The position numbers and the translations under genes were made by a program. A stretch of DNA of 64,000 nt from NCBI GenBank assembly GCA_963775955.1, contig CAVZKT010000002.1, forward strand, positions 228,944-292,943, given 5' to 3'. Below are positions 3,971-56,355 of this stretch, piece after piece. The notes under the pieces are model-generated. The model made no database searches and had not been told where the DNA came from. It saw nothing but the letters and a program-made list of their open reading frames with translations. Position 1 is the stretch's first letter, and the number at the start of each line of letters is the position of its first letter. This DNA is from Candidatus Moraniibacteriota bacterium. Its GTDB lineage: Bacteria > Patescibacteriota > Minisyncoccia > Moranbacterales > UBA2206.

Positions 3971-4981
3971 ATGCAAAATAAAAAAATAATTCAGTATATA
4001 TTAATCGCCATATCAATCACGATTTCATTTTTCGCCTTTTGGTCGGTTGAGCGGGCGGTGCGCGTTCCGGAAGCCAGTAATTGGCTGGCGCCGATAGTTT
4101 GGTTTTCTCTGCTTTTTATAATTCTTTGTCTTAATATCGCGCTGGTTAAGGATAAAAGAATCATATATCCGGCCATTTTTGCTTCTCTGCTTGCCTGTCT
4201 TGTTTTTTCTCCCAGCTTCTGGCAGTTTTTAGCCGTATTATTCGGATTTCTTTTGCTTCTGGCGGCGCGCGCGCGGATCCAGGGCGATATTGATTATGGC
4301 AAAAAAATCAAACTATGGAGATCTTTGCGTTTTGGAAAATCATATATATATCTGGCGCTGGCGCTGGTCATTTCCGGCCAGTATTATTTTTTGGTCAAAG
4401 ACGCTCCGGCGCAAAATTTCATTCCGGATTTCAAAGTTGACGGCCTGACGGAATATCTTACGCCCAAAATTCTTTCCGCTGTCAGCCCGGATCTTGCGTC
4501 TTCAGTCGGCGGCGAGACGACCATAGATCAATTTATCATCCAAATGCAAAAAAGCCAGTTGGATCAAGCAGGATATAGCCCGGAGAAACTTGCTAAATTG
4601 CCACCCGATCAGCGCGTAGCTATCCAAAAACAAATTGATGCGGAAATAGAAAAAAATCAGGATGCCCTCCTGGAAGAAGGAAGAAAAAAATTCACAGATC
4701 TCGTTGGCCGGCCGGTAAACGGATCAGAAAAAGTTTCCGCTATTTTTTCGGAAATAATAAACAGCAAGGTGAATGACTATTTAAAACCCGGAAATATTAA
4801 CATAGGTTCACTTCCAGTGGCGCCCATCGTTGCGTTCATATTGTTTTTAACGGTTTGGTCGCTGGGATCGTTTTTGGGAATAATTCTCGTACCAATGGCG
4901 GCGGGAATATTTTGGATTCTTGTTCAAGCGAAACTAGTTACGATATCAAAAATATCGGCGGAAGTGGAAGTAATTGAGTAG
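3971..4981 (+). CDS. Polytopic membrane protein, unknown function
   Basis: 336-aa ORF with several hydrophobic helices at both ends and a soluble central region. Confidence 0.6.
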   Translation: MQNKKIIQYILIAISITISFFAFWSVERAVRVPEASNWLAPIVWFSLLFIILCLNIALVKDKRIIYPAIFASLLACLVFSPSFWQFLAVLFGFLLLLAARARIQGDIDYGKKIKLWRSLRFGKSYIYLALALVISGQYYFLVKDAPAQNFIPDFKVDGLTEYLTPKILSAVSPDLASSVGGETTIDQFIIQMQKSQLDQAGYSPEKLAKLPPDQRVAIQKQIDAEIEKNQDALLEEGRKKFTDLVGRPVNGSEKVSAIFSEIINSKVNDYLKPGNINIGSLPVAPIVAFILFLTVWSLGSFLGIILVPMAAGIFWILVQAKLVTISKISAEVEVIE

Positions 4982-25531: not shown

Positions 25532-25555
25532 CAATTTTTTGCGATTAGTCCTGCC
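25532..25555 (+). promoter_or_regulatory. 5' arm of the putative pre-16S processing stem
   Basis: CAATTTTTTGCGATTAGTCCTGCC pairs over all 24 positions (one U-G wobble) with 28516-28539. Confidence 0.65.
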
Positions 25556-26127
25556 ATTCCGAAGCTCGCAAGAGCGAAGGATGGCTAGTACAGAAATGTA
25601 CAAAAACCCTCCTACGTCCGCCTCGGCGGACTTCGGAAGGGTAAAGAGTCTATTCAAACAAAGAATTTATTTTCTTTAAATAAGGTTTATTGATCCGTCT
25701 TCTCCGCCTTCGGCGGATTCGGCGGGATCTAATAAATCTATCGAAAAAAATTATATTTTTTTCGAGATTTATTGAGAGTTTGATCCTAGCTCAGGATGAA
25801 CGCTGGCGGCGTGGATAAGGCATGCAAGTCGAGAGGGTTTAGACCCTCGGCAAACGGGTTAGTAATACATAGGAACTTCCCTGAAGTCGTGAATAATCCG
25901 GAGAAATCCGGAATAATACACGATATGCTCTACGGAGTAAAGATTTATCGCTTCAGGAGGGCCTGTGTCCTATCAGCTTGTTGGTAGTGTAAAGGACTAC
26001 CAAGGCTATGACGGGTAGGGGGTGTGAGAGCACGGCCCCCAACATTGGGACTGAGACACTGCCCAAACTCCTACGGGAGGCTGCAGTCGAGAATATTCGT
26101 CAATGGGCGAAAGCCTGATGGAGCGAC

Positions 26128-27279: not shown

Positions 27280-28151
27280 AATAAAAGCGCTGGGCAGTTG
27301 TAAATTCTAAGGAGTTTAAATCTCCTCTCCCGATTTCGTCATCGGGATGTAGCTGAAAGGTAGTCGTTATCCGCGAGGATAATGGTGAAGGATCTGGAAG
27401 CAAAAAATAGTCCGACAAAATCCGCCAGTTGGCGGAGCGCGCATCGACCTTCGGAAGGGTGGTGAGCGAAGGGAAGACGCAAGAATAAGCGCAGTCGGAA
27501 TGTTTGGAAAAGAGTTTATAATGACCCCAGGAGATCTTATGCCGTTCTGATTATGTGTTATAATATAATCAGGTAATGAAACTTACGCGGCGTAAGAAGT
27601 CAGCTGAATCGTAGTATCCCGAGTTCTCGGGAGAAGGATTCACTCAGTGCATATGGAATTAAATCCAAATTATATCGTTGGTCTGGTTGATGGAGAAGGA
27701 AGTTTTACAGCTTATGTAAAAAATCCGGATTCAACCAAAAAAGTTCAAAGGCGGACAAAAGTTGAGCCAAGGTTTTTTCTGAAACTTATCGAGAAAGATA
27801 AAAAAATTCTTGATGAGCTTAAAAAATTCTTCGGATGCGGCAATGTTTATTTTCAAAAAGATAAGCGCGCCAATCATCAAAATTGTTATCGTTATGAAGT
27901 AGCCAACCGCAGTGATTTGGAAAAAATAATAGTTCCATTTTTCAAAAGGAATTCTTTGCAGTTACGCTCAAAGAAAAGTGACTTTGAAATGTTTTGTAAG
28001 ATTCTCAAGATGGTTCAAAAAAAGGAACATCTGAAAGAATCGGGATTAAGAAAAATATATAATCTCAAGCAAAAGATGCATTAGAGCTCGTCGTGTGCGG
28101 GAAATCCGCAGGCACGATGGGAACATCAATTCGTAGTTTTACGAAAATATT
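27280..28151 (+). mobile_element. 872-nt intervening sequence in the 16S (E. coli ~1397-1400 region) carrying a homing endonuclease gene
   Basis: Interrupts the universal GYACACACCGCCCGT: TTGTACTCAC | insertion | CGCCCGTCACACC. Contains structured GC-rich RNA flanks and the LAGLIDADG ORF. Confidence 0.85.
27653..28084 (+). CDS. LAGLIDADG homing endonuclease (single-motif type)
   Basis: NPNYIVGLVDGEGSF is the LAGLIDADG motif. 143-145 aa, the size of the homodimeric I-CreI-like class. Located inside the rRNA insertion. Confidence 0.85.
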   Translation: MELNPNYIVGLVDGEGSFTAYVKNPDSTKKVQRRTKVEPRFFLKLIEKDKKILDELKKFFGCGNVYFQKDKRANHQNCYRYEVANRSDLEKIIVPFFKRNSLQLRSKKSDFEMFCKILKMVQKKEHLKESGLRKIYNLKQKMH

Positions 28152-28485
28152 CGCCCGTCACACCAAGAGAGTCGGTAATACCCGAAGCTCCTGTTTTAAA
28201 GCAGGAACCACGGTAGGATCGATGATAAGGGTGAAGTCGTAACAAGGCATCCGTAGCGGAAGCTGTGGATGGATCACCTCCTTTCTAGGGAGAAATGATG
28301 GAATTCCAGAGCACTGCACTCCGCCAGTCGGCGGAAAAGGTATTCAGCGTCAAAACTAAATATCGTGTAGTGTGGATTTCATCCGCTGGTCGAATCTACT
28401 GAATTATCTCAGTAGGTAACAGCAATGCCCAGCAGTGCTATATGAAACTGCAGGTGTGTTTGTACACGCACCGATGGACACTCGG

Positions 28486-28521
28486 CCCGCCTGCAACGCT
28501 TTGCGTAGCAATGTGGGCAGG
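28486..28521. repeat. GC-rich hairpin element, copy A
   Basis: CCCGCCTGCAACGCTTTGCGTAGCAATGTGGGCAGG. 29/36 identical to the copy inside proS (56248-56283). Its core is shared with 29837-29874. Confidence 0.75.
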
Positions 28522-28539
28522 ACTAATCGCAAAAGATTG
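28516..28539 (+). promoter_or_regulatory. 3' arm of the putative pre-16S processing stem
   Basis: GGCAGGACTAATCGCAAAAGATTG, complementary to 25532-25555. Confidence 0.65.
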
Positions 28540-29516: not shown

Positions 29517-29780
29517 ATGGAAAGGATTAGGGAAAGAAGCATTAACGCAATAATGCTGGTTGCAGAAAAGAAAGGTCTTCCATTAGTTCCGAGGAAGTGT
29601 GTTGAAAGTGCCTGGAACGGATTAGAACAGGGAGAACTTAACACATCGTTGTATGCGGGCGGTTTATTTTTTGAAGCTATCCATGGGATCGCAACTGAGC
29701 TTTTTGAAACGAAAGGACGCCATAAAGCTTGTCGCCAATATTGCAGTGAGATAGTTTTTTGCCAAAAGGGTAAAATTTGA
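29517..29780 (+). CDS. Hypothetical protein
   Basis: 87-aa ORF with AAAGGGGGAC upstream. Flanked by clusters of ACATT-containing boxes. Confidence 0.45.
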   Translation: MERIRERSINAIMLVAEKKGLPLVPRKCVESAWNGLEQGELNTSLYAGGLFFEAIHGIATELFETKGRHKACRQYCSEIVFCQKGKI

Positions 29781-29836: not shown

Positions 29837-29874
29837 CCCCTGTCCGCAACGTTTCGCATAGCGATGCAGGCGGG
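29837..29874. repeat. GC-rich hairpin element, copy B
   Basis: CCCCTGTCCGCAACGTTTCGCATAGCGATGCAGGCGGG. Stem CCTGTCCGC/GCAGGCGGG. The loop core matches copies A and C. Flanked by T-run and A-run, so it could act as a bidirectional terminator. Confidence 0.65.
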
Positions 29875-30096: not shown

Positions 30097-31077
30097 ATGA
30101 ACATAAAAAATAAAAATATTATTATTGCGGGCATTATCATAATTCTGATTATTTCGGCGGCGGTTATGGCCGGCAAATATTATTATCTGTTCAAACCGGC
30201 AAAAAAATCGCCGGAATCCTTGACTGCGGCAACTCCGGAAAAAAATGAGCAGCTCGCAAAAACTGACAAAGTTGAAGAACCGGTTCCGGTTGTAGAAGAT
30301 AAAAATTCCACGGACAAAAATTATGTTAATTCTTCAATAAAGCTGGTTGCCTACAATGGACAAATTTATTCCGCCAAAATTCCCGAAGGCTGGAAAGTTG
30401 ATGAAAGCATCAGCGGAATCAATATTGCCAATCCCGAGGACAGCAATATGGGCGTGGCCTTGATCGCGGTTTCAGGCTGGCCCGGGAAAAGCAGTCCCGA
30501 CGCTTTCATCGAAAAAATAGCCGGCATGGGAGGCTTAAAAGATATAAGCCATATTTCAGAATCCAAAGAGGGAGAGCTCACAAATCCATCCGCTCCCGGA
30601 TATGTCTGGAAAGAAAAGACAAAAATTTTTACCTGTAAAAAAGACGGGACTTCTCTGAAAATTAAAGCCGATGCCGGGGTTATCAACGGCCAGGGGCAAT
30701 ACGTGGCTGTTTTTAAAGGTTTCCAGACAACGCCGGACAAATGGGACAAATGGGCGCCGCTTTTGGAAAGGATAGCTTTGAGCGCGGCCATAACTAATCC
30801 TTCCAAGGTGGGAGGCGCGGATAAAGTCATATTGCCTTCAGCCAAAGATCTGGCCAATGATTCCAGCCCGCTGATGGATGCCTGGAATTATCGCAATGGC
30901 GTTGAAGACCGGGCCTCCCATAATTTCAGCGACGCCACGATGGGCGTGGAATCCGATCTGGTTTCTCCTTCAACCGGGCAAAGTTTTACTTTGCCGCTTT
31001 CAAGCTATGACCCGACAGAAGGCGGTTATCACAATCCCAATGATTATTCGGAGATTTTGGAAGATTCATATAAATAA
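30097..31077 (+). CDS. N-terminally anchored/secreted hypothetical protein
   Basis: 326-aa ORF with one N-terminal TM helix. Preceded by an extended -10 (TGGTATAAT). Confidence 0.6.
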   Translation: MNIKNKNIIIAGIIIILIISAAVMAGKYYYLFKPAKKSPESLTAATPEKNEQLAKTDKVEEPVPVVEDKNSTDKNYVNSSIKLVAYNGQIYSAKIPEGWKVDESISGINIANPEDSNMGVALIAVSGWPGKSSPDAFIEKIAGMGGLKDISHISESKEGELTNPSAPGYVWKEKTKIFTCKKDGTSLKIKADAGVINGQGQYVAVFKGFQTTPDKWDKWAPLLERIALSAAITNPSKVGGADKVILPSAKDLANDSSPLMDAWNYRNGVEDRASHNFSDATMGVESDLVSPSTGQSFTLPLSSYDPTEGGYHNPNDYSEILEDSYK

Positions 31078-31585: not shown

Positions 31586-31697
31586 ATCAATCTGCCCATT
31601 TTAAAAGGGGCTCGTCTATACGCGAGCCCCCATCTTATTTTTTAAACAAGCAAAAAAGCTTGTTTTCATTTTACGCAAGTTGTGGTATTATATTTGC

Positions 31698-32009
31698 ATG
31701 GATCCAGCAGTGAAAATTCGAAATAATATTTTCTTCTATACCTACCTAATAAGAAGTCGTGAGTTTGATGAGATATATGTTGGCTATACCAATGATTTAA
31801 AGAAAAGAATTAATGAACACAACCTGGGTCTGAATAGTTCTACAAAAAGATATATGCCTTGGCAACTGATTTACTATGAAGCCTGTCTTGATAAAAATGA
31901 TGCTGCAAGAAGGGAAAGATACCTAAAAACCTCTCAAGGCGGGCGATTAATTAAACGACGCCTGAAGGAATATCTATTTAGAAATAAGCTTAATCATAAT
32001 AAAATATAA
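31698..32009 (+). CDS. GIY-YIG nuclease-domain protein (free-standing)
   Basis: FFYTYLIRS...IYVGYTNDLKKRINEHN (GIY...YIG motifs) with conserved R and E downstream. Confidence 0.75.
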   Translation: MDPAVKIRNNIFFYTYLIRSREFDEIYVGYTNDLKKRINEHNLGLNSSTKRYMPWQLIYYEACLDKNDAARRERYLKTSQGGRLIKRRLKEYLFRNKLNHNKI

Positions 32010-40569: not shown

Positions 40570-40687
40570 TAGCCGTCTGTGGATAAGCTGATTTAAAAAA
40601 ATTCAGGGAGGCACGCGTTAGCAATGCCTCCCTAACATTAAACTTTCTTTCCGCATCCCGGATGGTTTTCCAAGATACATCCCTCAC

Positions 40688-55095: not shown

Positions 55096-56355
55096 ATGTT
55101 ACAGTCTAAGCTATTCACTAAAACCCAAAAAGAAGCGCCTAAGGACGAGGCGAGTATCAACGCCCAGCTCTTAATAAGAGCCGGCTTTGTTGATAAATTA
55201 ATGGCGGGAGTTTACACCTTTTTACCGTTAGGACTGCGCGTGATGAAAAAGATTGAAAATATCATCCGCGAGGAAATGAACGCCATCGGCGGGCAGGAAA
55301 TTTTTATGCCCGCGCTCCAGCCCAAAGAAAACTGGCTGAAAACCGGACGCTGGGACGCGATGGATGATCTGTATAAAGTAAAGGACGCCAGCGGCAAAGA
55401 ATTCGCCCTGGGGCCGACCCACGAAGAAATCGTGGTGCCTTTGGCGCAAAAATATGTCAATTCTTACCGCGATTTTCCGTTTTACGTTTATCAGTTCCAG
55501 AATAAATTTCGCATGGAACTACGGGCGAAATCAGGACTTTTGCGCGGGCGGGAGTTTATGATGAAGGATTTGTATTCCTTCCACTTAAGCGAAGAAGATT
55601 TCAGCGCATATTATGAAAAAGCGGCCAAGGCCTATGAAAAAATTTTTCAAAGAATAGGGATTGGCGAAAAGACTTATAAAACTTTCGCGTCGGGTGGATC
55701 CTTTTCCAAATATTCCCACGAATACCAGACCGTGACTCCGGCCGGCGAGGATCTCATTCACATTTGCAACCAATGCGGGCTGGCGATTAACGACGAAATC
55801 AAAAGTGAAACCGAAGCATGCCCGAGTTGCAAAGGCGCGGATTTTCGCAAGGAAAAAGCTATTGAGGTTGGGAATATTTTTAATTTAAAAAATAAATTCA
55901 CCAAGCCGTTTGATTTCAAGATAAAAGATGAAAAAGGCGGGGAAAAAGAAGTGATTATGGGTTGCTATGGCCTGGGGCTTAGCCGGCTTATGGGAACAAT
56001 CGTGGAAGTTTTTCATGACGAGAAAGGCATTCTTTGGCCGGAAGCCGTAGCGCCGTTTAAAGCGCATTTGATTAGTCTGGGAAAAAATAGCGAGGCGGAA
56101 AAGATTTACGCGGATTTGCAGAAAAAAAATATTGAAGTGCTTTTTGACGACCGCGATGTAAGCGCCGGAGAAAAATTTGCTGACGCGGATCTGATCGGCA
56201 TTCCGTATCGCGTAGTCGTGAGTGAAAAATCACTGGCCGGCGGCGGACCCGCCAGCAACGCTTCGCGTAGCGATACGGGTTGGGTGGAAGTCAAAAAAAG
56301 AAGCGAAAAAGAGGGAAAGATTGTTGAAATATTGAAACTCTCAAAGATGCTATAA
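55096..56355 (+). CDS. proS: Proline--tRNA ligase, short form lacking the INS editing domain
   Basis: Class II motifs: FMPALQP, FRMELRAKSGLLRGREFMMKD (motif 2) and GCYGLGLSRLMG (motif 3). Only about 60 aa separate motifs 2 and 3, including CNQC...CPSC. Anticodon-binding domain at the C-terminus. Confidence 0.9.
   Translation: MLQSKLFTKTQKEAPKDEASINAQLLIRAGFVDKLMAGVYTFLPLGLRVMKKIENIIREEMNAIGGQEIFMPALQPKENWLKTGRWDAMDDLYKVKDASGKEFALGPTHEEIVVPLAQKYVNSYRDFPFYVYQFQNKFRMELRAKSGLLRGREFMMKDLYSFHLSEEDFSAYYEKAAKAYEKIFQRIGIGEKTYKTFASGGSFSKYSHEYQTVTPAGEDLIHICNQCGLAINDEIKSETEACPSCKGADFRKEKAIEVGNIFNLKNKFTKPFDFKIKDEKGGEKEVIMGCYGLGLSRLMGTIVEVFHDEKGILWPEAVAPFKAHLISLGKNSEAEKIYADLQKKNIEVLFDDRDVSAGEKFADADLIGIPYRVVVSEKSLAGGGPASNASRSDTGWVEVKKRSEKEGKIVEILKLSKML
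56248..56283. repeat. GC-rich hairpin element, copy C, in frame inside proS
   Basis: CCCGCCAGCAACGCTTCGCGTAGCGATACGGGTTGG encodes PASNASRSDTGW. 29/36 identical to intergenic copy A (28486-28521). Confidence 0.7.

Follow-up and report, generated by a model that had tools for sequence, protein, structure and literature searches.

A 36-nt hairpin element inserted in frame in proS of a Moranbacterales bacterium, with a small GIY-YIG protein as its candidate partner

Introduction

How does the gene of an essential tRNA synthetase come to contain a GC-rich block of 36 nt that is also found outside it on the same contig? The question is raised by proS, which encodes a prolyl-tRNA synthetase (ProRS) of 419 aa with tRNA-synt_2b and HGTP_anticodon domains (positions 55096..56355, + strand), in a 64,000-nt stretch of Candidatus Moraniibacteriota bacterium (assembly GCA_963775955.1, contig CAVZKT010000002.1), which we call the window and from whose first letter all positions are counted. 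An earlier note, made from the letters of this stretch and a list of its open reading frames (ORFs), had described three copies of a GC-rich hairpin element of ~36 nt, one of them in frame in proS. Here we follow up that note and find that the element, which we named E (consensus CCCGCCYGCAACGCTTYGCGTAGCRATGCGGGCRGG), is a discrete insertable hairpin unit whose ends are sharp to the base and whose hairpin is kept by compensatory changes, and that proS alleles with and without it differ by exactly 36 nt. We suggest, with a probability of about 65%, that E is a mobile hairpin with a small GIY-YIG protein as its trans-acting partner.

Results

An exact 36-nt insertion in proS

The copy of E in proS (copy C, 56248-56283, + strand, CCCGCCAGCAACGCTTCGCGTAGCGATACGGGTTGG) begins at a codon boundary and lies in frame (phase 0), and its translation, PASNASRSDTGW, makes up residues 385-396 of ProRS; the predicted peptide across the insert reads ...SLAGGGPASNASRSDTGWVEVK.... 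Among 120 ProRS homologues, 115 lack these 12 residues and pass directly from ...SLxxGG to VEVKKR, while five carry the 12-residue insert or a nested 24-residue form of it at the identical point. The closest homologue (P0002, 87% identity) has no insert and a length of 407 aa as compared with 419 aa. By its ProRS homologues, the organism is Moranbacteria-like and belongs to the Patescibacteria. The alleles show the same difference at the DNA level: filled alleles read GGCGGA, the 36 nt and then GTGGAA, and empty alleles read GGCGGA-GTGGAA, which is an exact 36-nt difference, and no target-site duplication was found when the filled alleles were compared with the empty ones. Such filled and empty pairs occur in two separate clades (the window and L002 vs L001, which is the closest relative and has no insert, and L203 vs L205), and the nearest neighbors of each of the five filled ProRS proteins are empty alleles. 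Homologues and alleles together bear out the in-frame insertion that the earlier note had proposed, including the indel of about 12 codons that it expected among orthologues.

The five filled ProRS lineages are 62-77% identical and have the same 12 residues at the same site. Their 36-nt blocks are 33-36/36 identical, whereas the flanking codons have diverged. Every proS copy belongs to a minor variant of E, with A at position 7 and T at position 34 (A7..T34), which accounts for ~13% of the genomic copies. Because this variant is shared and the site is identical, the proS copies of the five lineages are probably homologous and derived from one shared origin, and their distribution may be due to spread through recombination or to loss through precise excision instead of to five independent gains. 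Sliding-window identity around the site peaks in empty alleles too and reveals no clear recombination tract. Nesting was also seen: in the proS allele of L203, a second copy sits between positions 18 and 19 of the first, the 24-residue version in the ProRS of P0047 is one copy nested in another, and the ProRS of P0017 carries, in another loop (around 'NQK-PARNAS...'), a second hairpin insertion that is itself nested. We also noticed an 11-nt match to the 3' arm of the element elsewhere in proS (55773-55783) and regard it as a coincidence, as the empty allele L001 has it too and the other filled alleles do not.

The window copy differs from the consensus-like copy of L002 at two positions, both of which weaken the stem, and it folds no more stably than shuffled sequences (z-score -0.16). 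In the AlphaFold model of ProRS (pLDDT 86.8, pTM 0.89), the insert is located in a turn of the anticodon-binding domain, between strand 371-375 and helix 377-381 on one side and strand 396-401 on the other, and the only segment with pLDDT below 50, residues 385-393, lies inside it. This model supports the placement in a surface loop suggested by the earlier note and fits a tolerated loop, and we saw no sign that ProRS depends on these 12 residues.

One further ProRS homologue (P0117) ends in an ...IASEAKQSR tail, a repeat-derived peptide. We take this tail to resemble translations of NTS-like CGTCATTGC... hairpins, a kind of repeat that is introduced in the Discussion.

Three copies in the window

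A pattern search of the window with the 20-nt core GCAACGYTTYGCRTAGCRAT returned three exact matches, starting at 28493, 29846 and 56255 and all on the + strand, where 0.06 matches are expected by chance and none of 100 shuffles reached three. When the window copies were aligned with each other and with copies from elsewhere, the full length of the element was found to be 36 nt. The family of three copies described earlier therefore holds, and so does the identity of 29/36 between copies A and C. Copy A (28486-28521, + strand, CCCGCCTGCAACGCTTTGCGTAGCAATGTGGGCAGG) lies in the 16S rRNA trailer and has one mismatch to the family consensus. Copy B (29839-29874, + strand, CCTGTCCGCAACGTTTCGCATAGCGATGCAGGCGGG), whose start had been placed 2 nt too early at 29837, has five mismatches and is the most diverged of the three; it is intergenic, with an 87-aa ORF (29517..29780) on one side and a 326-aa ORF (30097..31077) on the other, and is preceded by a T-run and followed by an A-run. 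No T-run lies directly 3' of the hairpin at any of the three copies in the window. Neither a profile built from 123 copies nor a looser stem pattern found any member in the window beyond A, B and C. The hairpin at 40605-40633 (+ strand), suggested earlier as a possible shorter relative, was ruled out by its profile score of 2.5 bits (E-value 16); it is a stable hairpin (-19.4 kcal/mol, z = -6) that is unrelated to E.

Copy A abuts the rRNA processing helix, as the earlier note had described. The 16S leader at 25536-25554 (TTTTGCGATTAGTCCTGCC, + strand) is the exact reverse complement of the trailer at 28516-28534, which gives a 19-bp leader-trailer processing helix, and the last 6 nt of copy A belong to this helix.

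The same rRNA region has other features. A further GC-rich hairpin in the 16S leader (25550-25590, GCCATTCCGAAGCTCGCAAGAGCGAAGGATGGC) faces copy A in the leader-trailer helix and falls outside the superfamily of the 36-nt element. The 16S rRNA gene itself is split near E. coli position ~1400 by an insert of ~870 nt (27280-28152), whose ORF at 27647-28084 encodes a LAGLIDADG endonuclease (Pfam PF00961, E = 3e-17). The actual 3' end of the 16S rRNA, GGATCACCTCCTTTCT, is at about 28270-28285; Rfam placed the end of the gene at 27331.

Ends and fold of the element

For the characterization of E, one genome per species was scanned for the core, which yielded at least 120 stretches, and copy sets of 123 (profile), 126 (information content and covariation), 127 (SRM motif, see the Discussion) and 131 (nesting) were used. 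Among the 126 copies, the information content drops within one base at both ends, from 1.7 to 0.15 bits on the left and from 1.72 to 0.19 bits on the right. The flank positions hold ≤0.21 bits each and show no target consensus. Duplications of at least 3 nt at the flanks were found for 4.8% of the copies vs 2.2 ± 1.2% in shuffled flank pairs. Inverted repeats or base pairing in the flanks were not above those in shuffled flanks, nested copies aside, and we therefore reject a general insertion of E into flank hairpins. Nesting is specific in its position: of 131 copies, eight lie within a second one, in either orientation, and seven of these are placed exactly between positions 18 and 19 of the outer copy.

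Watson-Crick pairing between positions 7 and 34 is seen in 110 of the 126 copies (C-G in 55, T-A in 43, A-T in 12), and positions 17 and 25 are paired in 121. The alternative pairing of position 7 with 25 is ruled out by the recombinant haplotypes T,C,G,A and A,C,G,T. The resulting fold consists of a 5' CCCG tail, a helix of 5-9 with 32-36, a small internal loop, a helix of 12-19 with 23-30 that includes a T.T mismatch, and a GTA loop; for the C-G variant, a fully symmetric register is equally possible. This structure is based on covariation, as the minimum-free-energy folds of single copies vary in register and have weak z-scores. No Rfam family matched E at gathering or permissive thresholds, a literature search for its sequence or its peptide gave no match, and one for Patescibacteria together with palindromes and in-frame inserts returned nothing relevant.

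Translation of copies inside genes

Roughly one third of the E copies lie within open frames of unrelated proteins, in either orientation. Five of the six reading frames of E are open and one holds a TAG. We took a census of 43 copies located in open frames of at least 200 codons, with the frames assigned by total open length. The five open frames were used 15, 13, 7, 6 and 2 times and the TAG-containing frame not at all, where ~7 copies would be expected ((5/6)^43 = 4e-4). Phase 0 was the commonest (28/43), and depending on the orientation of E it gives the peptide PA(R/S/C)NA(S/L)RS(D/N)AG(G/W/R) or PARIAT(R/Q)SVAGG. The complete absence from the stop frame indicates that E inside genes is translated, neither spliced out nor bypassed, and this avoidance implies that the insertions are filtered by selection.

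Distribution and genomic contexts

Among the listed stretches, 67 are labeled Patescibacteria, from many classes, 29 are labeled PVC bacteria (Verrucomicrobiota, Lentisphaerae, Kiritimatiellia; contigs >1 Mb included), 15 are labeled Bdellovibrionales or Gammaproteobacteria and nine are others or unclassified. Bin contamination is probable for some of them, for example L040 and L047, which have common flanks, and L049 matches in the core only and is probably a chance match. E is nearly invariant among more than 120 listed copies and their flanks are unrelated. The recurrence of the motif in public genomes is thereby confirmed, whereas the idea that the repeat is a feature of this lineage does not hold, since E is found in several phyla. 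Carriage by phages was rejected, as only five matches were found in 2.9 million viral contigs.

At one locus, E splits a tRNA gene: the tRNA-Arg(CCG) gene of L098 (651-764, minus strand) is interrupted after nt 40, removal of the 36 nt restores a canonical tRNA-Arg(CCG), and ARAGORN detects the tRNA only then. This contig has very low coverage and a Chloroflexota label. A tmRNA considered at L012 and L017 was rejected, because the sequence GGTTCGAACC..CACCA after E is a duplicated 3' end of tRNA-Val.

Two unusual contexts were also noted. In Lentisphaerae GWF2_57_35 (L050, L080, L095, L106 and L122), E has a shifted 3' arm, GCGCAGGCG, and lies within a longer repeat with identical flanks (ggtggcccggcttctcc...ggcgaagacgggct), having been amplified as part of a composite repeat. 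In L077, at about 4094-4149, a (GTAG)n/(TAGG)n tandem run directly follows E and extends up to the contig end.

A small GIY-YIG protein and a tRNA-linked module

We clustered the ORFs of 122 loci selected for E, which amount to ~0.9 Mb in total and are not whole genomes. The most recurrent protein family was a small GIY-YIG protein of 80-100 aa, whose gene adjoins E in six of these loci; no recurrent transposase or other nuclease family was found among the ORFs of this set. In Pfam, all of the examined proteins of this kind (80-103 aa) match GIY-YIG only, and the family retains the invariant residues Tyr, Tyr, Gly, Arg, His and Glu. As an independent test, 80 metagenome loci were picked by similarity to the GIY-YIG protein alone. 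E is present in 20 of them, with 21 copies in all, of which 17 precede the start codon by 6-54 nt. Counting all hairpins of the superfamily, one is found ≤130 nt upstream of the GIY-YIG gene in 48/75 loci (64%). The superfamily comprises E and sister hairpins of 33-51 nt, which have the outer stem CCYGCCYGCA...TGCRGGCRGG in common with E and differ in their inner part. Across the 373 kb of protein-picked loci, 52 of the 61 superfamily hairpins are beside the GIY-YIG gene and nine are elsewhere. The GIY-YIG proteins that have E upstream are also more alike than the rest (mutual identity of 66.9% vs 61.8%, a difference reached in none of 500 permutations), and the nuclease subfamily and E are both common to Patescibacteria and Verrucomicrobiota.

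The arrangement extends to a tRNA gene. In 48 of 66 loci, a tRNA gene lies 4-90 nt downstream of the GIY-YIG gene, with many isotypes represented, and the hairpin is located within a duplicate of the first 20-30 nt of this downstream tRNA, after tRNA nt 5-23. The result is a recurrent module of ~400 nt, in which a tRNA 5' fragment that a GC-rich hairpin interrupts is followed by the ~80-aa GIY-YIG ORF and then by the intact tRNA (examples among L125-L199 and other loci are L125 287-660, L068 4300-4720 and L120 880-1270). The module precedes at least 14 tRNA isotypes, most frequently Gln, Asn, Lys and Leu. Two Verrucomicrobiota loci show its mirror image, with a tRNA-Val followed by the GIY-YIG gene and a 3' tRNA fragment split by E. 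The tRNA-linked hairpin and GIY-YIG module resembles a selfish cassette with tRNA genes as its target.

The window has its own stand-alone single-domain GIY-YIG gene (31680..32009, ATG at 31698, + strand, 103 aa; Pfam PF01541, E = 2e-18), 1.8 kb downstream of copy B. Its protein keeps the invariant residues of the family (Y, Y, G, R, H, E), and the nearest solved structures are those of UPF0213 proteins and SLX1, with weak E-values. From the linkage seen in other genomes, we consider it a candidate trans-acting partner of E.

Discussion

A proposed mobile hairpin with a candidate partner in trans

Our interpretation of the GIY-YIG protein as a trans-acting partner draws on the Ssn proteins, which are single-domain GIY-YIG nucleases of single-stranded DNA (ssDNA) that bind the NTS/SRM hairpin and cut beside it, and whose genes are flanked by the repeats (PMC11893778, Chenal et al., Nat Commun 2025). 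By analogy, the GIY-YIG protein might recognize the folded E hairpin on single-stranded DNA and cut at its borders, after which copying or ligation would place the 36-nt hairpin in single-stranded sites that are exposed. Its favored targets would be hairpin tips, either at the center of a further E or in the D-loop region of tRNA gene fragments, and insertion at such single-stranded tips could give precise insertions with no duplication. Solo copies, such as the three in the window, would then be non-autonomous passengers. A bolder version of this proposal treats E and the sister hairpins as the non-autonomous part of a class of selfish elements not described before. The autonomous part would be a minimal cassette of a hairpin and the ~80-aa GIY-YIG gene that settles in 5' tRNA regions and duplicates them; this class would move by single-strand cutting and ligation at hairpin tips, cross between Patescibacteria and PVC bacteria, and seed 12-residue loops in essential proteins. 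We put this version forward tentatively and consider it doubtful as a whole.

Several observations weigh against a mobile E with a GIY-YIG partner. The 17 copies upstream of the GIY-YIG gene are in both orientations relative to it (nine + and eight -), which also argues against a simple strand-specific operator role. The GIY-YIG gene of the window has no adjoining hairpin or tRNA gene within the window, and its protein is only 44-50% identical to the module-borne proteins. The SRM motif, HGTCWYN(0-2)YYVSBRHN(0-5)WNVSBRGN(0-2)RNCYNB, was found in none of the 127 E copies (±15 nt, both strands), while the NTS consensus, used as a positive control, matches it. GIY-YIG nucleases hydrolyze DNA with no covalent intermediate, and insertion would therefore need host ligation or repair, a step that is purely hypothetical here. 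The target in proS, GGCGGA-GTGGAA, is not obviously a hairpin tip. The movement of E is inferred here, and the binding and cutting of E by the GIY-YIG protein are predicted.

Alternative explanations

The main rival to the GIY-YIG partner is that E is moved by other machinery, such as host repair or replication or a different transposase, and that the GIY-YIG/tRNA module is just a preferred landing site that offers hairpin tips. The two orientations of E upstream of the gene agree with this, as do a position in the tRNA fragment that ranges from nt 5 to 23, like that of repeated independent insertions, the targeting of the centers of other E copies, and the lack of an adjoining hairpin at the GIY-YIG gene of the window. 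However, a hairpin at that spot in 64% of the GIY-YIG loci, with only 9 of 61 hairpins in 373 kb elsewhere, is too frequent for a landing site, and the 122 E loci hold no second recurrent family of nucleases or transposases. The closer similarity of the E-associated proteins (66.9% vs 61.8%, 0/500 permutations), the presence of both nuclease subfamily and E in Patescibacteria and Verrucomicrobiota, and the published precedent of small GIY-YIG nucleases with hairpin repeats (PMC11893778) also speak for the nuclease, and we regard the landing site as unlikely. Much less probable still is that E is not selfish and instead serves the host as a selected signal, for example for termination, processing or protein binding. 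Copy A does lie at the base of the 16S processing helix, the element is highly conserved with covarying pairs, and many copies are just upstream of a gene, all of which would suit a signal. Yet about a third of the copies lie in unrelated coding frames in either orientation, one interrupts a tRNA-Arg gene, others are nested in each other, and presence and absence differ among close relatives; in addition, there is no Rfam match, and the window copies are followed by no T-run, copy B being followed by an A-run.

The remaining explanations concern the proS copy itself and the reality of the repeat. The 12 residues could be an ancestral ProRS loop that was deleted in most relatives, its likeness to the intergenic copies being coincidental or secondary, and the same residues at the same site in five lineages of 62-77% identity, with no clear recombination tract by sliding-window identity, are compatible with such a history. 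This is highly improbable and already contradicted, and the flanks of the extragenic copies show that these are not fragments of proS. Besides, the same 36 nt occur in more than 120 unrelated contexts (intergenic, in other proteins in five frames, in a tRNA gene), the block is 33-36/36 identical between ProRS lineages despite the diverging flank codons, and one proS allele has a second copy nested in the first. We give equally little credence to the idea that the proS transcript loses its copy as a mini-intron, or that the ribosome skips it in a translational bypass of the kind known for the GC-rich 'byp' inserts of yeast mitochondria and for T4 gene 60, so that ProRS would lack the 12 residues. 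A GC-rich hairpin in the coding region of a ~40% GC genome might raise this expectation, and so might the copy in a tRNA gene, where an insert that is not removed should be harmful. The census speaks otherwise, with 0/43 copies in the stop frame vs ~7 expected; the length is an exact multiple of three, 28/43 copies are in phase 0, and the proS copy is no longer a stable hairpin (z = -0.16). As for an assembly or sequencing artefact, in which an adapter-like hairpin contaminates metagenome-assembled genomes, it is true that all carriers are metagenome assemblies and that the sequence is near-identical across phyla. Compensatory variants, diverged copies and nested copies exist, though. A filled copy at this one proS site turns up in data from independent studies and assemblers, with NCBI, ENA and Logan among the sources, selection on the copies is evident from the frame census, and their position relative to a specific gene is fixed. 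We hold an artefact to be the least credible explanation of all.

Significance

The filled and empty alleles reveal how an essential enzyme of genome-reduced bacteria can gain a peptide loop from a 36-nt selfish hairpin, and E insertion is a direct source of protein indel variation. The pairing of small GIY-YIG nucleases with hairpin repeats may be extended to Patescibacteria and the PVC phyla by a repeat that escapes the published SRM search motif and has features unreported for Ssn, namely base-exact boundaries, duplication-free insertion, self-nesting at the center, a tRNA-linked module and frequent coding insertions. Mobilization of the hairpin by the nuclease, if it occurs, would be a new transposition route and a source of sequence-specific ssDNA nucleases with a defined 36-nt substrate, and the bolder version, if true, would involve a single-strand cut-and-ligate transposition chemistry that is not known for GIY-YIG enzymes. 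On the practical side, the annotation of metagenome-assembled genomes is affected, because E splits tRNA genes, as in the tRNA-Arg of L098, and lengthens ORFs.

Comparison with known systems

The closest described system is that of the Ssn nucleases with their NTS/SRM hairpin repeats. Like NTS, E (36 nt) is a short GC-rich hairpin repeat (20-50 nt) scattered in genomes and oriented by a conserved part that is not palindromic, in this case the asymmetric and conserved 5' CCCG and loop. Both are found across phyla, often in symbionts, and both stand beside the gene of a single-domain GIY-YIG protein of ~90 aa in an arrangement like that of a small mobile element. The differences are that Patescibacteria and Verrucomicrobiota are absent from PMC11893778, that NTS is almost never intragenic (2%, PMC11893778) whereas about one third of E copies lie in open frames, and that the Ssn gene order is NTS-ssnA-NTS whereas the module here has a duplicated tRNA 5' fragment upstream of the intact tRNA. 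Exact 36-nt boundaries, nesting at the center, and filled and empty alleles are not described for NTS in PMC11893778. A GIY-YIG gene beside tRNA genes, probably spread as a selfish cassette, is also known from T4 SegB (PMC2330249), but Seg proteins have two domains, cut double-stranded DNA, and come with neither a hairpin repeat nor a duplicated tRNA fragment.

REP/REPIN sequences with their RAYT proteins offer a second parallel, being dispersed imperfect palindromes of ~35 nt with a dedicated nuclease-type gene that is flanked by copies, with no target-site duplication and with a hairpin thought to be recognized on single-stranded DNA. RAYT, however, is a Y1 HUH transposase, whereas the partner here would be a GIY-YIG protein. 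The GTAG that stands at the end of REPs is located at the loop of E (positions 20-23), whose ends are CCCG...GG, and REPs are extragenic and species-specific whereas E is often intragenic and near-identical across phyla. Other short elements differ more clearly. Miniature inverted-repeat transposable elements have terminal inverted repeats and a target-site duplication, which E lacks, palindromes derived from IS200/IS605 insert 3' of a conserved tetra- or pentanucleotide while the E flanks hold ≤0.21 bits, and in contrast to CRISPR repeats the copies of E are solitary, tens of kb apart or nested, never regularly spaced, and form no spacer array. The GC clusters of yeast mitochondria and 'byp' resemble E as short GC-rich hairpins that invade an AT-richer genome, including its coding regions, but byp is bypassed by the ribosome and can be in any frame while E avoids its stop frame.

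For the behavior inside genes, the earlier note had pointed to the Rickettsia palindromic elements (RPEs), which are also palindromic repeats inserted in frame in essential protein genes, translated, and tolerated in surface regions. RPEs are 100-150 bp long and known only from Rickettsia. In-frame insertion is thus common to both, and the parallel is an analogy only, since E has 36 nt instead of 100-150 bp, occurs in several phyla and has no sequence similarity to RPEs. E is best filed with the hairpin repeats that are paired with a nuclease, as REP with RAYT and NTS with Ssn, combined with an RPE-like in-frame behavior.

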